Shown here: positions 29,610 through 47,401 of the stretch, in pieces
How the letters are laid out: the number at the start of each line of letters is the position of its first letter
Position numbering within the stretch: position 1 is the first letter of the stretch
NCBI GenBank assembly: GCA_050011835.1
Contig: JBEKII010000001.1
Span: 86,473-150,472, forward strand
Source of the DNA: Minisyncoccia bacterium
GTDB lineage: Bacteria > Patescibacteriota > Minisyncoccia > Phycocordibacterales > Phycocordibacteraceae
Direction of reading: 5' to 3'
DNA length: 64,000 nt
The notes under the pieces: generated by a model
Databases searched by the model: none
What the model was told of the DNA's origin: nothing
Seen by the model: only the letters and a program-made list of their open reading frames with translations
Made by a program: the position numbers and the translations under genes

Positions 29610-32438
29610 TTATACCACAAGGTTGACAATCTTGCCTGGAACATAGACCACGCGCGCTGGCTCCTTATCTCCAAGTGCGGCAATTACCGCGGGCAGTTTG
29701 AGGGCCGCGGCTAACGCTTCGGCTTCGCTTGCCTCGCTCGACAACCGAATGGTACCCCGCTTACGGCCAGCAACTTGTACGACAATTTCATTTTCAGTTG
29801 CAGCAGATAAAGAAGCGACTGGCCATGATTGTTGATGTACGCTTCCTTCCCCGCCAAGTTTTTCCCAGAAATATTCGGCGAGATGCGGTGCGAATGGCGC
29901 GAGCATAATAACGAATGATGGGAGCACGGCTTTCGGGACAATTTCTGTGGTTTCAAGTTCATTCACAAGAATCATCAAAGCCGCGATACTCGTATTGAAC
30001 TTAAATCGATCGCTGTCTTCGGCAATTTTAATGTTTGCGCGCGCAATGGCTTTTTGAATTGAGCCCGGTATCTCGGTCGTATCGTACGCGCGTCCGACGA
30101 GCCGTACGGTGCGGTCAAGAAATTTACGCATTGCGGCGACTCCTTCTAAATTCCATAGATAACTCCCCGATTCATTGTAAGGGCCAATGAACGCGAGATA
30201 CATGCGCACCGCATCGGCGCCATATTTCTGCACGAACTCATCGGGATTCACCACGTTTCCTTTGGACTTGCTCATTTTCCGGCCATCCGAGCCCATGATG
30301 AGCGCACGATTGAAACGCTCCGCGAACGGCTCTTCAACCGGCACGAGAGCGAGGTCATAAAGCGCGTGTGTGAAGAAACGCGAGTAGAGAACATGCATCG
30401 TTGTATGCTCGCTTCCTCCCGAGTAGCGATTTATCGGCAACCATTTTTCCATCAGCGCCGCATCAGAAAAATTGTACTTATCTTTTGAGTCAAGATATCG
30501 GAGAAAATACCATGAAGAGTCCACAAAGGTATCAAATGTGTCATATTCCGGCGTCCACCCTTCGCCGAAAATTTTTGTCACGCGCTTCCGCAATTCTTTT
30601 GAAGAAGCCAACGGGGCTTTGCCGGTCGGCTTAAAGTCAACATCGGTCGGCAAGAGCCAAGGTAAATGTTCGGCGGGAATCGCGTGCGGCTTCCCTTTTG
30701 GGTCATACACAATCGGTATTGGACAGCCCCAATAGCGCTGACGGCTCACGAGCCAATCGCGGATGCGGTATTGCGTTGCCTTCTCGCCCCCGACGGCTTC
30801 CACGATGTCCCATTTGGCTTCTTCGCTGTTGCGTCCGCTAAATTCACCTGAATCAATAAGAATGCCTTGCTCCGTATATACATCTATGCCGGTACGAATA
30901 CGATTGCGAATGAGCTCTATTTCAGAATGTTGGATGCGCACGGTCATAAATTCTTCGGCAGTAAGCCAGATGACTTCATGTTGCTCAGTTTCTTTCGCAG
31001 CGACAGGTTTGCGCGCATTGTCAACTAATTCAAACAAAAGCATTGAATTGCGGGCGATGCGGTTGACGCCTTTATGTGCCGCATAAAACTCGGCTTGCGC
31101 GTCACCGCCGAGTTTGCGCACAAAACGCACGTCTGTGTAGCCGGTCTCTTCGGCAATTTCGCGTTTAGCTGATGCAACAATATTTTCCCCTTCTTCAATG
31201 CCGCCCGTGACAAACGTTGTCCACGGTTGTTTTTTCCACTTCAGACAAAGATAGCGATTCGTTTTGGGATCAAAAACGACATCAATTGTTGCGCGACGAG
31301 GGACAACTTCCTTCCCGGGCTGATGCGGATTTGTCGGGTCCGGCAAGCGCGGCATAATGACATCCCGAATTGGCAGATTAAACTTTTTTGCGAATTCAAA
31401 GTCGCGTTCGTCGTGCGCGGGAACCGCCATCACCGCGCCGGCGCCGTAGGAGCCGAGAACGTAGTCGGCAACGTACACGGGAATTTTTTCCTTTGTTGCG
31501 GGGTTGATGGCTGAAATGCCTTCAAGACACACGCCGGTTTTTTCTTTATTCTCGCTACGCTCCCGTTCGGTTTTTTTATTCGTTGCGCTGACATATTCCT
31601 TAATCTGTTTTTTATTTGAAACAGCGGATAACAAAGATGAAACAAGCTGATGTTCAGGCGCGAGCACGACATACGTCGCGCCAAAGATAGTGTCTGGCCG
31701 TGTCGTGAACACTTTAATTTTCTCGTCACGACCAGCAATCGGGAATTCCAGATACGCACCTTCGCTCTTCCCGATCCATGCGCGCTGCGCTTCTTTTATC
31801 TCCTCACGCCACGGGAGCGTGTTCAAGCCGGCGAGAAGACGTTCGGCATAGTCGGTAATCTTAAGAAACCATTGTGTAAGCCGCTTCTCCTCCACCGCCG
31901 TACCGCACCGCTCGCAGCAACCGTCTATCACCTGCTCATTAGCAAGTACGGTTTGGTCTTTCGGACACCACTTGACCGGCGCCTCGCGACGCTCGGCGAG
32001 TCCATGCTCAAAAAGTTTTTCAAAGAGCCATTGTGTCCATTGATAAAAATTTGGATCGCACGTGACCACCTCTTTGCTCCAATCAAAAGATGCGCCCATT
32101 GTTGCGAGTTGCTCGCGCATCCGCGCCATATTCTTATACGTCCACTCTCTCGGATTGGCATTGTGCTTTATGGCGGCGTTTTCGGCAGGAAGACCGAAGG
32201 CGTCAAAACCAATTGGGAAAAGGACATTCTTCCCTCTCGCGCGCAACATCCGCGCATAAATATCAGTCACCGCGAAAGCATACCAATGCCCAATGTGGAG
32301 ATCTCCCGAAGGATACGGGAACTCAACGAGTAAATAATAACGCTCTCTTGATTCATCGGTAAGATTGGCCGAATAGAGACCGAGTTTTCTCCACTTCTCC
32401 CGAGCCGCTTTCTCAATTTTTGAATGATCGTATGTCAC
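29610..32438 (-). CDS. leuS: leucine--tRNA ligase with a NUDIX hydrolase domain inserted after the CP1 editing domain
   Basis: HIGH (PYPSGDLHIGHWY), the editing-domain T-rich region (TTRPDT), AHDERDFEFA and KMSKSKGN are all present. Between LPIRDVI and GILIDSGEF lies a ~160-aa insert with a textbook Nudix box GGIEEGENIVASAKREIAEETGY. Confidence 0.9.
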   Translation of the reverse strand: MTYDHSKIEKAAREKWRKLGLYSANLTDESRERYYLLVEFPYPSGDLHIGHWYAFAVTDIYARMLRARGKNVLFPIGFDAFGLPAENAAIKHNANPREWTYKNMARMREQLATMGASFDWSKEVVTCDPNFYQWTQWLFEKLFEHGLAERREAPVKWCPKDQTVLANEQVIDGCCERCGTAVEEKRLTQWFLKITDYAERLLAGLNTLPWREEIKEAQRAWIGKSEGAYLEFPIAGRDEKIKVFTTRPDTIFGATYVVLAPEHQLVSSLLSAVSNKKQIKEYVSATNKKTERERSENKEKTGVCLEGISAINPATKEKIPVYVADYVLGSYGAGAVMAVPAHDERDFEFAKKFNLPIRDVIMPRLPDPTNPHQPGKEVVPRRATIDVVFDPKTNRYLCLKWKKQPWTTFVTGGIEEGENIVASAKREIAEETGYTDVRFVRKLGGDAQAEFYAAHKGVNRIARNSMLLFELVDNARKPVAAKETEQHEVIWLTAEEFMTVRIQHSEIELIRNRIRTGIDVYTEQGILIDSGEFSGRNSEEAKWDIVEAVGGEKATQYRIRDWLVSRQRYWGCPIPIVYDPKGKPHAIPAEHLPWLLPTDVDFKPTGKAPLASSKELRKRVTKIFGEGWTPEYDTFDTFVDSSWYFLRYLDSKDKYNFSDAALMEKWLPINRYSGGSEHTTMHVLYSRFFTHALYDLALVPVEEPFAERFNRALIMGSDGRKMSKSKGNVVNPDEFVQKYGADAVRMYLAFIGPYNESGSYLWNLEGVAAMRKFLDRTVRLVGRAYDTTEIPGSIQKAIARANIKIAEDSDRFKFNTSIAALMILVNELETTEIVPKAVLPSFVIMLAPFAPHLAEYFWEKLGGEGSVHQQSWPVASLSAATENEIVVQVAGRKRGTIRLSSEASEAEALAAALKLPAVIAALGDKEPARVVYVPGKIVNLVV

Positions 32439-41438: not shown

Positions 41439-41479
41439 ACTCTTAATATTACGCGGCTGAACTATATTTTGCTACGCGA

Positions 41480-41587
41480 GTGGGCCACGGTGGAGGACGT
41501 TCGAACTTTTCTCTTGGAAGAAAGGCACTCCCGCATGTTAACACGGCACGATTAGTCGTGCGACGATCTTTTCGATTTCCTCATAAG
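41480..41587. repeat. X-element copy 1 (~110 nt structured repeat, possible small RNA), in htrA 5' region
   Basis: ~90% identical to 44661..44782. On the minus strand it ends ...GTCCTCCACCGTGGCCCAC, and a 9-bp palindrome TTCATCTAG/CTAGATGAA sits at its distal end (41588-41611). Confidence 0.7.
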
Positions 41588-41679
41588 TTCATCTAGTGGG
41601 GTCTAGATGAAGCGTTGGATCTTTGACAGGCACAGTGATGGACTCAAAATTTGAAATGAGAGTATAATAATGCCCAAAC

Positions 41680-42156
41680 ATGGCAAGTATAACCTTCAGC
41701 AAAGAGGAATTTGATGCGGTAAAAGCAAAGGCAGAGGCAGACTACAAAAAAGTAGGGGAGGTACAATGTCCTTATCTGAACAGCAAAATTGCTTTCAATG
41801 CAAAAGGCTTGGATCATATAAAAATGAAAAAATGGAACCATGCTAGGAGTAAAGACGATCAATTCATGAGGCTTAAACTACTTCATTTGGCACCTAGTGT
41901 GCTTAAAGAATCTCATACTCTCCAGGGCATTGATCAAGGAAACAAAATGGAACGTATTAAAATTAATTCACGATGGGAATTTAAAATGGTTTTTGTTTCC
42001 TATTATGATTTCATAAGCGTCATATCTGGGTGCAGAATAAGAATTGTGGTTAAAAATATAGAAAATGGCCCCAATTACTTTTGGAGCATTATTCCTTATT
42101 GGAAACAAGGGAATTATCGTAGGGAAATGTTTGAGGGGAATCCAGAAGAGGATTAA
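41680..42156 (+). CDS. hypothetical protein (158 aa), low GC
   Basis: A plus-strand ORF inside the AT-rich island. TATAAT lies 12 nt upstream of the ATG, and a strong terminator follows the stop. Confidence 0.5.
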   Translation: MASITFSKEEFDAVKAKAEADYKKVGEVQCPYLNSKIAFNAKGLDHIKMKKWNHARSKDDQFMRLKLLHLAPSVLKESHTLQGIDQGNKMERIKINSRWEFKMVFVSYYDFISVISGCRIRIVVKNIENGPNYFWSIIPYWKQGNYRREMFEGNPEED

Positions 42157-42162
42157 CAAAAA

Positions 42163-42190
42163 ACCGCCACAACACGTGGCGGTTTTTCGG
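42163..42190. terminator. bidirectional rho-independent terminator
   Basis: AAAAA-ACCGCCAC-aaca-GTGGCGGT-TTTTT: a stem with A and T tracts on either side, lying between convergent 41680..42156 (+) and the SDR gene (-). Confidence 0.65.
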
Positions 42191-42403
42191 TGGCACCTGG
42201 CTACGGTTTATGTATTAACCGTGGGAGAACTAGGTCCTCACAAGTGCCTTGCCAGTATAACAAATATGGATGAGGATTTCAAGAAGTTGGGGATAATGAA
42301 AATATGCCTTAAAATAAGGCTCTCCGGTCTAGCTCAAAGTAGCTGCGGGTCTGCGGCTCTATCTTTTGCAAATTTTACGTCCTAGAATCTCATCACGGGT
42401 CAA

Positions 42404-43153
42404 TTAAGAACCCAACATTTCGGCTTCCTTCAAATAGATTTCTGTTGTTGCTGTATCACCACCGTCAATTGTGATCGTCGTCCCGTTTATGTAGCTTGAA
42501 TTATTGGAGAGGAGGAAAAAGACGAGCTGCGCGATATCCTCATAAGTTCCGTTCCTTTTAAGAGGATTCATATCAGCGGCTTCTTTGAGCAAATCTGGCG
42601 GAGCCTGCATGCCGTCTCCTATCCAGCCAGGAGCAATTGCATTCACACGTACCTTCTTTTTACTCAAGATAACCGCAAGACTCTTGGTGAGATTAAGAAG
42701 TGCTGCCTTGCTTGCGGCATAGGCGATGCCATCGATACCACCTACCATCGCGTCAATGCTTGATATGTTGACGATAGATGCCCCCTCAGCTAACTGATTC
42801 TTGAGGCCATGGACGATAATGAGTGGCGTATTGAAGTTGATCTCGATAGTCCTATCCCAATCTTCCATCTTGAGATTATCAAATTCGATGGGTACGAATA
42901 CTCCAGCACTATTCACAATACCGTCGAAGCTGACACTGGAAAGCTCTTTGAGTAGTCGCATCGTATTATGTCGATCTGAAAAGTCGCATTGGAACACCTT
43001 TATGTTCTTGAGTTCTTCAACAAGTTTGTTTGCTTCCGCTTTGTTTGTGTTGTACACGCCGTATACAAAAAAGCCTTTCTGCACGAGAAGTCTGGCTGTG
43101 GCTTCCCCCATGCCACGAGATACGCCTGTAACGAGGATGTTTTTCATGATCAA
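42404..43153 (-). CDS. SDR family oxidoreductase (FabG-like)
   Basis: TGVSRGMGEATARLL (TGxxxGxG), NSAG, and the catalytic YAASKAAL (YxxxK). Confidence 0.85.
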   Translation of the reverse strand: MIMKNILVTGVSRGMGEATARLLVQKGFFVYGVYNTNKAEANKLVEELKNIKVFQCDFSDRHNTMRLLKELSSVSFDGIVNSAGVFVPIEFDNLKMEDWDRTIEINFNTPLIIVHGLKNQLAEGASIVNISSIDAMVGGIDGIAYAASKAALLNLTKSLAVILSKKKVRVNAIAPGWIGDGMQAPPDLLKEAADMNPLKRNGTYEDIAQLVFFLLSNNSSYINGTTITIDGGDTATTEIYLKEAEMLGS

Positions 43154-43286
43154 AGTATAGCAGAGTTCGAATTCTTAGATGGGTACATTTCTTTAAGTCT
43201 CGAACCGATTTTTAAAATGGCTTAGAATATGATGCTCTTCGGAGTCCGAACCTATCTCAAGTTAGCTGGGAGTAAAGGAATCGAAT

Positions 43287-43369
43287 CTTTATTTGGCTTA
43301 TATTTATATAATTGATTTAAGAGTTTAAGAAGGGAGAATTTGCCCAAAAGCGCAATTTTACCTACCTAT
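43287..43369. repeat. S-element copy (~80 nt AT-rich intergenic repeat)
   Basis: CTTTATTTGGCTTATAT...TTAAGAGTTTAAGAAGGGAGAATTTGCCCAAAAG.GCAATTTTACCTAC, ~85-90% identical to 44585..44660 and 46732..46808. Confidence 0.75.
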
Positions 43370-43434
43370 ATGGTGGGCCACAGTAGAGGACGTTCGAACT
43401 TTTTATCGAGAAACAGAAAACCTTGCAATTTAGA
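43370..43434. repeat. X-element partial copy (3' ~35 nt conserved, ends ...CTGTGGCCCACCA on minus strand)
   Basis: TGGTGGGCCACAGTAGAGGACGTTCGAACTT matches the 3' end of the X elements. It begins 1 nt after the stop of the exonuclease gene. Confidence 0.65.
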
Positions 43435-43435
43435 A

Positions 43436-43942
43436 TTATAATATGATCTTTCGTAAAATATCAGCAGCAATCCTACAATCTTCTAGGGCATTATGAAGTT
43501 CTCTGGGTTTTGCTCCGAATTCCCTAAAGATCTCCTCTGAACGCAGACTGCCACTATACCCCTTTTTTAGCAGGTGGATATAGGCGACAGGCCAGATATC
43601 TAAAATATGATAATCATACTGCTCCCAGGTTATTCCCGCCGCATTTATAATTTTCTTAAAATGCGTTATGTCTAAAGTCGCCGCCCAGGATCCGATAAGA
43701 ATGTCTGTTCCGAACTTTTCAAAAATCAGTCGTCCAACTTCCGCTTGCGAGGGAGCACCCTTCAACGTATCTTGAGATATACCCGAGATAACATTAACTT
43801 CACCCTTGAGATCGGCAAAAATATACGAAGAGAAGTTATCTATTTCATTCAAGGTTTCTTTATCTAAAAGTACCGCTCCGATTTGATTCGGTTCCGGTCT
43901 ACCTTCAAAATCGATAAATAAAATGTTTTTTGCAAATTTCAT
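43436..43942 (-). CDS. DEDDh-type 3'-5' exonuclease (DnaQ-like)
   Basis: Exo I FIDFEG, Exo II-like region, and Exo III HNALEDCRIAA (H-x4-D). 168 aa and AT-rich. Confidence 0.65.
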   Translation of the reverse strand: MKFAKNILFIDFEGRPEPNQIGAVLLDKETLNEIDNFSSYIFADLKGEVNVISGISQDTLKGAPSQAEVGRLIFEKFGTDILIGSWAATLDITHFKKIINAAGITWEQYDYHILDIWPVAYIHLLKKGYSGSLRSEEIFREFGAKPRELHNALEDCRIAADILRKIIL

Positions 43943-43975
43943 ATGCTGGCTGCACAGTATAACACGAGAACTAAA

Positions 43976-44554
43976 TTAGGATTTCTCAAGCACACATAAC
44001 ACTTCATCAAAACCACCTTTAGAGATACCTTCGAAATGAGAGATGTGCCATTTCCCATTCTCAACTTCTCGGCGAAAACCATCTGAACTGAAGAAGCTTT
44101 GCCAATGTATGGGTGACTTTTGTTTCAGTCTGAAATTCACCCAGAAATCCAGTAGCGCAAGCTGTATTTTACCGAAGAAATTGTGGTATAACTCTTCGAC
44201 AAGAATAATGCGTTTTGAAGTAACGCGCCTCATTTCTTCTAAGAGCGCCTTCCGATCAAATGCGTGATGCAGCACATACGTGGCAATTGAAGTCTCGAAG
44301 GCATTGTCGTCGAAAGGCATTCGTCTCCCATCGTAGAGAATAAAATTCTTCACGTTGACGGCTTTTGGATGTTTAATGATTTCAAGCGACACAATTTTTA
44401 TCCCTGCCCTCTCTGCAAAAAATGAGAAGTGGCCCAAACCGCTACCAATATTCAGATTGGTATCGAGGAGATAAGGATGTATTCGTTCAAACCACTGTTT
44501 TTGATATTGCTGAATGAAGCTAGTTGCGTCCATTGGATGCAGTATATCTCCCAA
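43976..44554 (-). CDS. class I SAM-dependent methyltransferase
   Basis: Motif I LLDTNLNIGSGLGHF, post-I acidic residue (VSLEI), and motif IV-like DDNAFE. AT-rich. The start may be the internal ATG at MDATSF. Confidence 0.65.
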   Translation of the reverse strand: MGDILHPMDATSFIQQYQKQWFERIHPYLLDTNLNIGSGLGHFSFFAERAGIKIVSLEIIKHPKAVNVKNFILYDGRRMPFDDNAFETSIATYVLHHAFDRKALLEEMRRVTSKRIILVEELYHNFFGKIQLALLDFWVNFRLKQKSPIHWQSFFSSDGFRREVENGKWHISHFEGISKGGFDEVLCVLEKS

Positions 44555-44584
44555 AATATCCAGCTGGGGGTAAGGAGATCAAAC

Positions 44585-44660
44585 CTTTATTTTAGCTTAT
44601 ATAATTGATTTAAGAGTTTAAGAAGGGAGAATTTGTCCCAAAGTGCAATTTCTACCTACA
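44585..44660. repeat. S-element copy
   Basis: See 43287..43369. It is located between X-element copy 2 and the methyltransferase start. Confidence 0.75.
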
Positions 44661-44782
44661 TGGTGGGCCACAGTGGAGGACGTTCGAACTTTTCTCTTGG
44701 AAGAAAGGCACTCCCGCATGTTAGCACAGCACGATGAGTCGTGCGACGATCTGTTCGATTTCCTCACAGATTCATCATAAGG
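44661..44782. repeat. X-element copy 2 (full length, ends ...GTCCTCCACTGTGGCCCACCA on minus strand)
   Basis: ~120-nt element with an internal hairpin CACGA-CTCA-TCGTG and the palindrome GTTCGAAC, with a tRNA-like CCACCA terminus. Compensatory-looking changes relative to copy 1 occur in the hairpin region. Confidence 0.7.
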
Positions 44783-44894
44783 CTCACGAATGACGATACA
44801 AGAAAGGTAATTGTGCCTCATAAGGCAAAATTTAGTAAAACAAGATATCGGAGGAACTTCTCTATAATTAAAATAGCTTCCAACGTCGCACCCG

Positions 44895-45638
44895 CTATCG
44901 ACTGGCCGTTTCAGTCTTGGTATTCCATCTATAAAAATAATAGAACCAAAAATTCGTCCCGATTCTTTTAACAGAAAATCTATAATGAGAAAATTCTTTA
45001 ATCACTTTCTCTGAAAATGCAGAGGCAAAGGCGTAATCAGCCGACCGCTTCTTGGGATCCCATACGCCCCGCCTAACTCGGCCACGAGCAGTTGTATGGC
45101 AATTCGGGATTGCTATCAAGAGCTGCGATTCTCGTTTCAGTTTCTCATTTAAATCTTTTACAAAACGCTTAATTCCTTTACGCAGAGAGGTCGACGAAAT
45201 CGAAGTAATTGCAACAATTATATCAATGCTATTATTGCGAATCCTTCTTCTCTTTCCGGATACGACATCCTTCCCCTGAAATTTTCGGATGTCCCCTTTT
45301 ATGAATCGGATCTTCGGATAATCCTTATATGTATCAGCGGCATCCTTCAAAGAATCTTCGATGAGATCGCAGACAATAATATTCAAGTTTTTGAAAGGTT
45401 TCTTTCCGATCTTCTTTTGGATAAATTTAAGCTCGTAACCATTATTGACGCCAATATCGAGCAGGTGATCGCCTGGAGAAAATCGCATCCATTTGAGAGC
45501 TTGTTTCAAGCTCCGCTTTATGTCGGGGTTGGAATATAAAATCTTCTGGGCTTTCTGGTAATCGGATTCAGGACCGTATTTCTTCCTGTAATCCTCGGGT
45601 AAGCTTTTTTCCCTAATTATCTGCGATGTCCATTTCAT
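44895..45638 (-). CDS. SAM-dependent methyltransferase
   Basis: Motif I HLLDIGVNNGYE and an acidic post-I residue (IVCDLIED). 247 aa and AT-rich. Confidence 0.6.
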   Translation of the reverse strand: MKWTSQIIREKSLPEDYRKKYGPESDYQKAQKILYSNPDIKRSLKQALKWMRFSPGDHLLDIGVNNGYELKFIQKKIGKKPFKNLNIIVCDLIEDSLKDAADTYKDYPKIRFIKGDIRKFQGKDVVSGKRRRIRNNSIDIIVAITSISSTSLRKGIKRFVKDLNEKLKRESQLLIAIPNCHTTARGRVRRGVWDPKKRSADYAFASAFSEKVIKEFSHYRFSVKRIGTNFWFYYFYRWNTKTETASR

Positions 45639-45650
45639 AAAAAGATGAAA

Positions 45651-46634
45651 TTAATACATAGTAGTGCGGACGCGATGGAACGGGCGGGCAACGGCAGCTT
45701 TCTGCTTCGCGTCGAGCCAAAGATAATCGTTGATATCGATGGCATTTAATACTTTTTCTTTCTTGAAAAGATATCGCCTCATGTACTCAACAGCCCAAAT
45801 GGTCGTTGCCCGAATCTCGACTTCGTACGGCGAACCTGGCAAAATTTGCTTTTCTGAATCGACCAACGCGGAGAGCTCTTCGCTATAATGAAGAATCATA
45901 ATTTCACGCAATAATTGTGGCAATCGGTAATCGGCGGCGGCAGTAAGGCTGGAAACATTCTTCAAATTTCCAAGCGGCGGCTTCAACATCCTGCTTATGT
46001 CACCAATGAAAATCTGGGCTTTCTTCATGAAATACACTTTCTTTCCTTTGTAAGTCGCCTCATCCCGAAAAGCCGGAAAGGTCACGTATATATCTCCAAG
46101 AAGTTTTGCGGCATCATGATTTGCAGTTTCAATCATGCGAGCCAAAGAACCATCAAAGTTTCTACATATGATTTCGCAATTCTCCCTTAAGATACGGCAA
46201 CGTTCCGAAAAGATTGGAATTTCGACATCTTTGTTTATTATCTTATTGAGTTCTTCATCCGATATTTTGGAAAGATATTGCAAATTCAAAATTGGCAACT
46301 TGTTCTCGTAGGCGGCATATAGCGCCACATCTAGTCCCCATGAAGTCATATATTTCTTTCCTTTGTATTCAAAGAAATAATCCGGTGGACCCCAGTACGA
46401 GAAACTCAACGAGGAAAATACGAAGATGAAATTCAACAGCTCCATCTGGGTAAAAGCTGAGATGTCAGCCGGCCCAGCCAGGAGCCAAGGCTTAAGCTCG
46501 GCAATTTGTAGATTGTCCACGTATCGCTCGAGTTCTTTCTGATCAATAGAAACATGCTGGGCATGCTCAACGACAAATTTCGTTGATTCCAAGACTGAAT
46601 CGGATGCAAATGACTGGTGGGTATCTTGAGGCAT
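45651..46634 (-). CDS. DUF2419/Qng1-like protein (putative queuosine-salvage queuosine-5'-phosphate N-glycosylase/hydrolase)
   Basis: 327 aa. Segments FVFSSLSFSYW..YKGKKY.TSWGL, ERCRIL.EN, LFEGKKVYF.KKAQI and AADYRLPQ..R..L.YS match, from memory, the conserved blocks of eukaryotic Qng1 (C9orf64) family proteins. This needs an HMM check. Confidence 0.5.
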   Translation of the reverse strand: MPQDTHQSFASDSVLESTKFVVEHAQHVSIDQKELERYVDNLQIAELKPWLLAGPADISAFTQMELLNFIFVFSSLSFSYWGPPDYFFEYKGKKYMTSWGLDVALYAAYENKLPILNLQYLSKISDEELNKIINKDVEIPIFSERCRILRENCEIICRNFDGSLARMIETANHDAAKLLGDIYVTFPAFRDEATYKGKKVYFMKKAQIFIGDISRMLKPPLGNLKNVSSLTAAADYRLPQLLREIMILHYSEELSALVDSEKQILPGSPYEVEIRATTIWAVEYMRRYLFKKEKVLNAIDINDYLWLDAKQKAAVARPFHRVRTTMY

Positions 46635-46731
46635 AATGTTAAAAGAATTATAGCAAGATAAATAAATTAAAATCCATGAACCAAAAGCCCACCCAAGACA
46701 TCTCTAGCGCGTTTGGGAGAAGAGAATCGAA

Positions 46732-46808
46732 CCTTTATTTTGGCTTATATAATTGGTTTTAAAAGTTTAAGAGGGAGAATTTGCCCCAAAGTACAATTTT
46801 TACCTACG
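46732..46808. repeat. S-element copy immediately 3' of tRNA-Ala(TGC)
   Basis: The same ~78-nt element as at 43287 and 44585. Similarity extends ~10 nt into the tRNA 3' end (GTCCACCA versus GCCCACCA of the X elements). Confidence 0.75.
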
Positions 46809-46884
46809 TGGTGGACCCAAGCGGACTCGGACCGCTGACCCCCACATTGCAAATGTGGTGCTCTACCAGCTGAGCTATGGGCCC
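46809..46884 (-). tRNA. tRNA-Ala (anticodon TGC), CCA encoded; atypical T-loop (C at position 55)
   Basis: Acceptor GGGCCCA/TGGGTCC with G3:U70; anticodon arm CCACA-TTTGCAA-TGTGG; T arm AGCGG-TCCGAGT-CCGCT. The unusual T loop lowers confidence slightly. Confidence 0.7.
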
Positions 46885-46957: not shown

Positions 46958-47401
46958 TCATTTTTGACCAATTACTTGAAGTTGGATTAAGGCCTTAAAA
47001 GCATGTTCTGTTGCTTCGATAAGCGGAAACTTGGAATAATCTGAAATTGATACCCATTTGTAATCGTCATGATCCGTGCCAAGCTTAACTTCTGAATTTA
47101 TTGGTTCACACACAAAAAACATGCCGATTATCTGAATCTGTTCGCCCCTTACAACAGGTCTCCATTCGTCAACAAAAAATGGCCCGCCAATTTTTACTTT
47201 CATTCCAACTTCTTCCTTAGTTTCCCTTTCAATTGCTTGAGTAATAGATTCTCCAATTTTCACCTTACCACCAGGAAAGTCATACTTACCGTGGTTTGTC
47301 CCTCCATCATACTTATCGGATTCCTTAATAATTAAAACTTTGCCGTCTTTGATAATGACGGCGCGAACGGCAATAAATTGTTTTTGAATTGTTGGTTCCA
47401 T
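46958..47401 (-). CDS. NUDIX hydrolase
   Basis: Nudix box GGKVKIGESITQAIERETKEEVG. The start is placed at MEPTIQK; the 311-aa ORF-track version is an unsupported upstream extension into ddl. Confidence 0.8.
   Translation of the reverse strand: MEPTIQKQFIAVRAVIIKDGKVLIIKESDKYDGGTNHGKYDFPGGKVKIGESITQAIERETKEEVGMKVKIGGPFFVDEWRPVVRGEQIQIIGMFFVCEPINSEVKLGTDHDDYKWVSISDYSKFPLIEATEHAFKALIQLQVIGQK

Follow-up and report, generated by a model that had tools for sequence, protein, structure and literature searches.

Arrangement of the array and its repeated elements

The window, as we call the whole 64,000-nucleotide stretch of DNA that was analyzed, comes from a 277-kb JGI metagenome contig (Ga0427919_0000068) of an uncultured, Kaiserbacteria-like bacterium of the Patescibacteria (CPR), listed publicly as "Minisyncoccia bacterium". 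It contains an array of small gene blocks directly downstream of a tRNA-Ala(TGC) gene. The blocks are bounded by two kinds of repeated element, referred to here as S and X (Table 1). Read from high to low coordinates (genes lie on the minus strand where no strand is given), the locus comprises, in order, Ddl, a NUDIX gene and tRNA-Ala(TGC), followed by S1, Q_salvage, the 247-aa methyltransferase-like gene and X2; then S2, the 185-aa methyltransferase, the 168-aa DEDD exonuclease and X3; then S3, the short-chain dehydrogenase, a terminator that works in both directions, ORF158 (158 aa, plus strand) and X4; and, beyond X4, a flank with an HtrA-like protease, tRNA-Val, two successive tRNA-Pro genes and tRNA-Ala. 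The units are 1.3–2.2 kb in size. Half-sites occupy the two ends of the array (tRNA/S1 and X4/flank), and joined sites (X2/S2 and X3/S3) lie inside it.

Table 1 Features of the array next to tRNA-Ala(TGC), in window coordinates and in the order in which the locus is read
Feature	Position	Strand	Description
tRNA-Ala(TGC)	46809..46884	-	Intact, encoded CCA; left anchor, attL-like junction with S1; ARAGORN; Rfam tRNA model, 66 bits
S1	46700..46808	-	Directly 3′ of the tRNA-Ala CCA; AT-rich 5′ part of ~65 nt, then tRNA-Gly-like 3′-half remnant of ~35 nt
Cassette 1 cargo	44895..46634	-	Q_salvage 45651-46634; 247-aa methyltransferase-like 44895-45638; Pfam
X2	44661..44776	-	Right-end element of cassette 1; ends ...GTGGCCCACCA; joined directly to S2, attP-like X/S junction
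S2	44555..44660	-	Directly after X2; repeat search, alignment, profile, junction table
Cassette 2 cargo	43436..44533	-	185-aa SAM methyltransferase 43976-44533; 168-aa DEDD/RNase_T-type exonuclease 43436-43942; Pfam, NCBIfam, PHROGs
X3	43371..43403	-	31-nt X stub; ends ...GTGGCCCACCA; joined directly to S3
S3	43262..43370	-	Directly after X3; 3-nt and 5-6-nt insertions relative to S1 and S2
Cassette 3 cargo	41680..43147	.	Short-chain dehydrogenase 42404-43147 (-); terminator ~42160-42200; LPD3-like 158-aa ORF 41680-42156 (+); Pfam
X4	41478..41593	-	Terminal X copy, no S after it; attR-like junction with the host flank

S was found by repeat search and alignment over the 64-kb window as three direct, AT-rich copies on the minus strand. 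Ungapped pairwise identity was 85% between S1 and S2 and 92% both between S1 and S3 and between S2 and S3, far beyond chance and in agreement with the ~85–90% given in an earlier note on this DNA. A profile built from the three copies matched those three alone in the window, the next match having an E value of 0.96, and it found no match in the extra ~5 kb of the source contig beyond the left end of the window. The ~78 nt that the note had assigned to S fell short: the copies are where it placed them, and their homology runs ~30 nt further, through GGTTCGATTC..CTCCCA, to about 46700, 44555 and 43262, giving S a length of ~105 nt. On the minus strand, all three copies start one base past CCACCA. 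In our junction table, tRNA-Ala ...GGGTCCACCA/CGTAGGTAAAAATTG marks the start of S1, X2 ...GTGGCCCACCA/TGTAGGTAGAAATTG that of S2, and X3 ...GTGGCCCACCA/TATAGGTAGG that of S3 (the stroke denotes the junction). Thus, apart from the one-base offset, each S does come right after a CCACCA end, either of tRNA-Ala or of an X, as had been claimed.

The AT-rich segment of S, ~65 nt long, includes two tandem TYTTAAA motifs, which we infer to be candidate protein-binding sites. S also has a conserved block, CAAATTCTCCCTTCTTAAAC, in a set of three copies whose conservation is inseparable from recent common descent. X3–S3 and its neighbors recur with 99.9–100% identity in contigs of at least six other samples, the sequence of S3 being identical in contigs from other samples; the structure is thus not an assembly artifact.

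X4, a fourth X that the first reading of the sequence had missed, is 93% identical to X2 over 114 nt. It leaves the X consensus right after ...GGCCCAC, with TC instead of CA, and is followed by unrelated host flank and the HtrA-like gene. Comparison of this flank with the start of S gave no significant similarity (p = 0.4–0.9), and no extended common core can be demonstrated. The last 17 nt of X match the 3′ end of tRNA-Ala(TGC) at 13 positions, which is the best score among the seven tRNAs of the window and modestly above background; two other Ala tRNAs match at 11–12 of the 17 positions, and the non-Ala tRNAs at 8–10. When the shared CCACCA is left out, 7 of the 11 further positions match, and beyond 17 nt the similarity is at background level. 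As far as these alignments tell, X is neither a faithful copy of the tRNA-Ala 3′ end nor a recognizable tRNA fragment. The sequence GTTCGAAC inside X lies outside the T-loop register and has no T-stem. We also considered the 5′ end of X as a remnant of a dehydrogenase C-terminus; the match (29 nt, 83% identity, E = 0.04) was too weak.

Among the genes of the array, ORF158 is the sole uncharacterized one. Its family, which comprises 496 clusters at 50% identity, consists of stand-alone proteins of ~160 aa with the invariant residues H46, R56 and Q82; the family is related to the LPD3 domain, a match to which was obtained for 17 of 53 members. LPD3 is a domain of polyvalent proteins of phages and conjugative elements (PMC5512222). 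We examined ORF158 as a hidden recombinase and rejected it as such, given a confident AlphaFold model (pLDDT 92.6) with no fold match in the PDB and its LPD3-related family. For Q_salvage, we found 46 homologs at E ≤ 1e-30, the best non-self one being 57% identical. Judging from sequence, the cargo is accessory and Q_salvage rare.

Two smaller observations concern the surroundings of these genes. The dehydrogenase gene and ORF158 converge on a strong bidirectional terminator hairpin (AAACCGCCACGTGTTGTGGCGGTTTTTT; window 42160–42282), and a promoter-like site, TTGAAA-17-TGTTATACT, is present on the minus strand ~60 nt upstream; together they could produce an ~80-nt small RNA, or they could simply be where transcription of the dehydrogenase gene ends. 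In the T-loop of tRNA-Ala(TGC), TCCGAGT, position 55 is a C, although U (pseudouridine) is almost universal there; in relatives the loop is TTCAAGT or TTCGAAT.

Foreign composition and distribution of the elements

The island as a whole (41478–46808, 5.3 kb) has a GC content of 0.412 versus 0.492 in the rest of the window. The cargo genes range from 0.36 to 0.45 (in cassette 1, 0.43 for Q_salvage and 0.40 for the 247-aa gene), as against 0.51–0.53 for the HtrA-like gene and Ddl. Since the GC content is low in every unit, import is indicated rather than local origin. Relatives whose Ddl is 80–87% identical have the same TGT-UvrB-UvrA-UvrC-Ddl synteny and the same tRNA set. The distance from tRNA-Ala(TGC) to tRNA-Val is at most 70 nt in two of them (L008 and L010) versus about 6.3 kb in the window, and neither S nor X was found in any of these relatives, the insertion being missing in L008, L010 and a third relative, L062.

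The Ala-Val-Pro-Pro-Ala tRNA cluster of the relatives holds insertions and tRNA fragments of its own (L062 5235–5250; L010 11396–14770; L006 12763–13609), for example, a 16-nt tRNA-Pro fragment 165 nt from the full gene and a block of 3.4 kb that encodes a two-component system and separates tRNA-Pro from tRNA-Ala. Insertions thus recur at this cluster, which is a hot spot for them in the lineage. Upstream of tRNA-Ala, the NUDIX gene that separates it from Ddl (46958–47401, minus strand) has a GC content of 0.378, is missing at this position in L008, L010 and L062, and is probably another small insertion. Elsewhere in the window, a NUDIX Pfam match occurs between the synthetase segments of a 942-aa class I aminoacyl-tRNA synthetase (tRNA-synt_1/Anticodon_1; 29610–32438, minus strand), an unusual domain insertion.

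The units might have spread locally by unequal or homologous recombination, with X–S being a duplicated intergenic segment or a "landing pad" for cassette exchange between strains, independently of any dedicated recombinase. That no recombinase was found would fit such a process, as would the confinement of the known copies to one 5.3-kb locus of one species and the fact that the Ddl–SWIB gene region is a general hot spot of variation in relatives. However, the cargo genes are mutually unrelated, so that simple tandem duplication fails; half-sites that abut the tRNA CCA exactly are not predicted by it; and the composition of every unit speaks for import. We consider local spread quite unlikely.

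An exact-pattern scan of 185,579 species genomes did not find the S pattern in any of them, and a scan of JGI metagenome contigs returned same-strain copies of S3 and two chance matches, nothing else. Four S/X patterns had no real match in IMG/VR, and blastn detected no S or X in INPHARED phages or PLSDB plasmids. The X core, by contrast with S, had one match in the species genomes, in the Patescibacteria MAG RA.bin35 (contigs L063/L064; 86% identity over 50 nt, nhmmer E = 9e-6), so it is not unique to the window. In L063, a 30-nt piece resembling the 5′ part of S (S′; a weak match, E = 0.06) lies immediately upstream of the X-like piece (X′), in the order S′ to X′ with nothing between them. 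The site is located between a histidine-phosphatase gene and an rve-family IS (~20 nt away), at the edge of a primase/HTH_17/DNA methylase/helicase block, and can be read either as the remains of an integrated element without cargo or as a small unit akin to a transposon. In RA.bin35, the motif GGGTGGGG(C/T)AAATTA, which the 5′ part of S also contains, follows each of two consecutive genes (L063 1309–1341 and 2558–2590) and is found once more, inverted, beside a terminator-like hairpin (L064 3801–3811).

The order S′ to X′ near an IS is what a cargo-less element would look like if S and X were the ends of a non-autonomous, cargo-carrying transposon family (MITE-like, or like IS200/IS605 or IS91) that targets ...CCAC(CA) and lands new copies beside the tRNA or beside the end of an earlier copy. 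The precise ends of each S...X unit in the window and the failure to find an integrase are also compatible with such an origin. On the other hand, comparison of the S start with the X end disclosed no terminal inverted repeats or consistent subterminal hairpins in any unit, target-site duplications are missing, the array contains no transposase, neither S nor X occurs near the rve gene that the source contig has outside the window, and the S′ match in L063 is weak. Transposon ends are therefore an unlikely explanation of S and X.

Relation of S and X to tRNA, RNA and promoter elements

The earlier note had described a T-loop-like tail on S. We confirm it: over its last ~35 nt, S aligns with the 3′ half of tRNA-Gly(CCC), from the 3′ strand of the anticodon stem to the acceptor end (p = 0.003–0.03 versus shuffles). 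In L053, a contig of another Patescibacteria genome, the first of several tRNA-Gly fragments shares 16 of 18 positions with the tail of S1 (p < 0.004). The T-loop-like end of S is best read as the decayed scar of a tRNA-Gly 3′ half carried within S. Additional T-loop-like fragments that had been noticed at 43200–43290, downstream of S3, dissolved on testing, with no significant similarity to S, X or tRNA (p = 0.1–0.99).

L053 also encodes the best relative of Q_salvage (57% identity), followed by a homolog of the 247-aa gene (50% identity). This pair is low in GC and lies directly after tRNA-Gly(CCC), which is itself surrounded by four partial copies. The fragments, at L053 9470–10000, comprise 18 nt of the tRNA-Gly(CCC) 5′ end upstream and three 3′-part pieces downstream, and a perfect 13-bp hairpin just before the Q_salvage pair takes in the end of the last tRNA-Gly fragment.

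It had been allowed at the outset that S might occur downstream of most tRNAs. It does not: one of the seven tRNAs in the window carries S, which is thus no general tRNA trailer. S, X or both could still act as RNA, be it as a CCA-ended signal that resembles a tRNA and serves for punctuation or processing, as a small RNA made on the same transcript as the tRNA, or as a pseudo-tRNA. X does have the CCACCA end of a tRNA, the S tail looks like a T-arm with an acceptor strand, and no terminator separates tRNA-Ala from S1. However, neither ARAGORN nor Rfam called a tRNA or pseudo-tRNA on S at default settings, there was none on S at E ≤ 10, and the calls of relaxed ARAGORN were inconsistent between the copies; at E ≤ 10, the Rfam families matching S/X were limited to the true tRNA and spurious antisense matches. 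The predicted fold of S was no better than that of shuffled sequences (z = +0.5 to +1.1). That of X was marginal (z = −0.9 to −1.4), the differences between X2 and X4 break predicted pairs, and X3 lacks the 5′ strand of the hairpin predicted in X2 and X4. We regard an RNA element as extremely improbable. X was likewise rejected as the 3′ end of a tmRNA, and X to S as a permuted tmRNA, because ARAGORN/Rfam reported no tmRNA and the candidate tag frame is unconserved between copies.

The earlier note had also proposed a conserved tRNA-linked promoter or processing module. As a shared promoter, 5′ leader or regulatory module, S would serve the gene downstream, and indeed it is always followed by a same-strand gene whose start codon is 20–110 nt away; it is also AT-rich, with a conserved TATAAT on the opposite strand. 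A promoter scan of both strands of S, however, gave no promoter-like site. Q_salvage, the exonuclease and the SDR gene (three of the four cassette genes checked) have their own extended −10 box, TGnTAtAmT, 6–13 nt before the start and outside S, an arrangement shared by Ddl and several other host genes. Also, the spacing between S and the start codon differs five-fold among the units, and a plus-strand ORF through S has no conserved start codon and shows substitutions that are all non-synonymous. With no fold and a single tRNA carrying S in addition, the proposed module finds no support; we consider it very unlikely, and S probably has no role in expressing the downstream genes. A plus-strand small protein spanning S to X was rejected as a present-day gene in view of the missing conserved start codon, the non-synonymous changes in S and an in-frame stop in X4. 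In the X core, where the plus strand reads WATVEDVRT, X2, X3 and X4 differ at three positions, all synonymous; across the whole 114 nt, substitutions of both kinds occur.

Proposed serial insertion at the tRNA-Ala(TGC) 3′ end

S is most likely a leftover attachment-site arm of a mobile element, a known kind of scar. The explanation that we favor, and to which we give somewhat better than an even chance, is that S and X are the left and right arms of a family of small integrative cassettes with site-specific insertion at the 3′ end of tRNA-Ala(TGC). We infer the recombination mechanism and the order of events to be as follows. S would be the left arm, conserved and next to the tRNA, and X the right arm, remote from it, and the cassettes would have been inserted serially by site-specific recombination at the extreme 3′ end of the tRNA gene, with a crossover within ...CCAC(CA)/. 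The first integration would have given tRNA/S...X/flank, and each later integration at the same site would have added one unit, creating hybrid, attP-like X/S joints inside the array and leaving attL (tRNA/S) and attR (X/flank) at its ends. Half-sites at the ends together with joined sites inside are a specific prediction of such accretion, a process defined, along with integrase-less CIMEs, in PMC5704250.

The empty site would then have been tRNA-Ala ...GGGTCCAC + TCGCGTAGCAAAAT. A 3′ CCA is encoded in two of the seven tRNAs of the window, tRNA-Ala(TGC) and tRNA-Ala(GGC), and is missing from the other five, which fits an ancestral ...GGTCCAC/TCGC flank to which the element brought the "CA". 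S itself is layered, consisting of an AT-rich segment and a decayed tRNA-Gly(CCC)-like 3′ half, the latter of which would be a relic of an earlier stage of the element family that targeted tRNA-Gly. The present units would be decayed, CIME-like remnants without a recombinase of their own, movable only by a recombinase acting in trans. We found no tyrosine or serine recombinase in the array or in window positions 1 to about 56,600 (Pfam, PHROGs and NCBIfam for the array ORFs, precomputed Pfam elsewhere). Also, at least six independent assemblies contained no empty site, single cassette or circular junction, and had the full array throughout. The suggestion made earlier, that the pattern reflects tRNA 3′ fragments and attachment-site duplications, stands in part: S and X bound three blocks, with half-sites at the ends, a tRNA-Gly-like remnant and empty relatives, but X cannot be taken for a clean tRNA fragment, an integrase is missing, and the additional T-loop fragments are insignificant.

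We compared the array with known systems of related design. Islander-type and tandem islands at tRNA or tmRNA genes, such as those at Dehalococcoides ssrA (PMC3146451; PMC4383910), likewise have an intact RNA gene at one end, head-to-tail blocks of deviant composition, boundary repeats at each joint and an empty site in relatives. The array has the intact target tRNA, the empty site in relatives and the deviant composition; it differs from such islands in that it contains no integrase, its units are very small (1.3–2.2 kb), and its boundary, instead of cleanly repeating the tRNA 3′ end, consists of a ~105-nt S plus a 31–114-nt X. CIMEs and accretion in the ICESt1/ICESt3 family (PMC5704250) resemble it in that integration and transfer genes have been lost and attL/attR-type ends kept: the junctions tRNA/S1, X2/S2, X3/S3 and X4/flank occur here without recombination genes. 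The differences are that mobility, like a cognate integrase in cis or in trans, is putative here, and that the host belongs to the Patescibacteria (CPR), with no known conjugative partner element.

Tycheposon arrays of Prochlorococcus (bioRxiv 10.1101/2020.12.28.424599) are similar in combining a streamlined genome with cargo elements located by tRNA genes, neighboring elements with nothing but partial tRNA copies between them, older remnants that have degenerated, and partial tRNAs at scattered places. They are, however, defined by a tyrosine recombinase and replication modules, none of which is present in the array, and there is no sequence relationship. Integron cassette arrays share with it small units of one or two genes in one orientation and a repeated site-like element, of which a circularized unit would carry one complete copy. 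In contrast to integrons, the array has no IntI in its surroundings (about 10 kb upstream, 45 kb downstream), is anchored by a tRNA gene instead of attI, and has genes with their own promoters; the genes upstream of tRNA-Ala are NUDIX, Ddl, NDK, UvrC and UvrA, with no integrase among them. X/S was rejected as an integron attC, as the single-strand DNA fold of X2–S2 gave z = −1.0 and −1.1 for the two strands with no imperfect palindrome or consistent inverted repeats, and as a dif/Xer (IMEX) site, as it has no dyad symmetry and no hairpin.

A more ambitious reading is that the array is an active gene-capture platform served by an integrase in trans, with self-promoted cassettes of 1.3–2.2 kb, X/S sites of ~140–240 nt and the tRNA 3′ end as the point of entry. 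We hold this to be decidedly unlikely. If true, the platform would be a functional analog of integrons built on tRNA-type attachment sites, and its recombinase would come from another genomic locus, a phage or an episome.

Returning to S and X as cassette arms, the kind of feature is known, and the sequence family and the host are new. The S/X junctions can be used as search handles and as PCR targets for excised circles, empty sites and the missing recombinase. At present, the locus is an ordinary-looking integration scar in an unusual host, and it would be of wider interest if the cassettes were mobile without an integrase of their own. How Patescibacteria, with their very small genomes, gain accessory genes is little documented here. 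The locus provides a precisely delimited example, in which three imported blocks (queuosine salvage plus methyltransferase, methyltransferase plus exonuclease, and dehydrogenase plus LPD3-like protein) lie one behind another at a tRNA cluster that varies in relatives as well.
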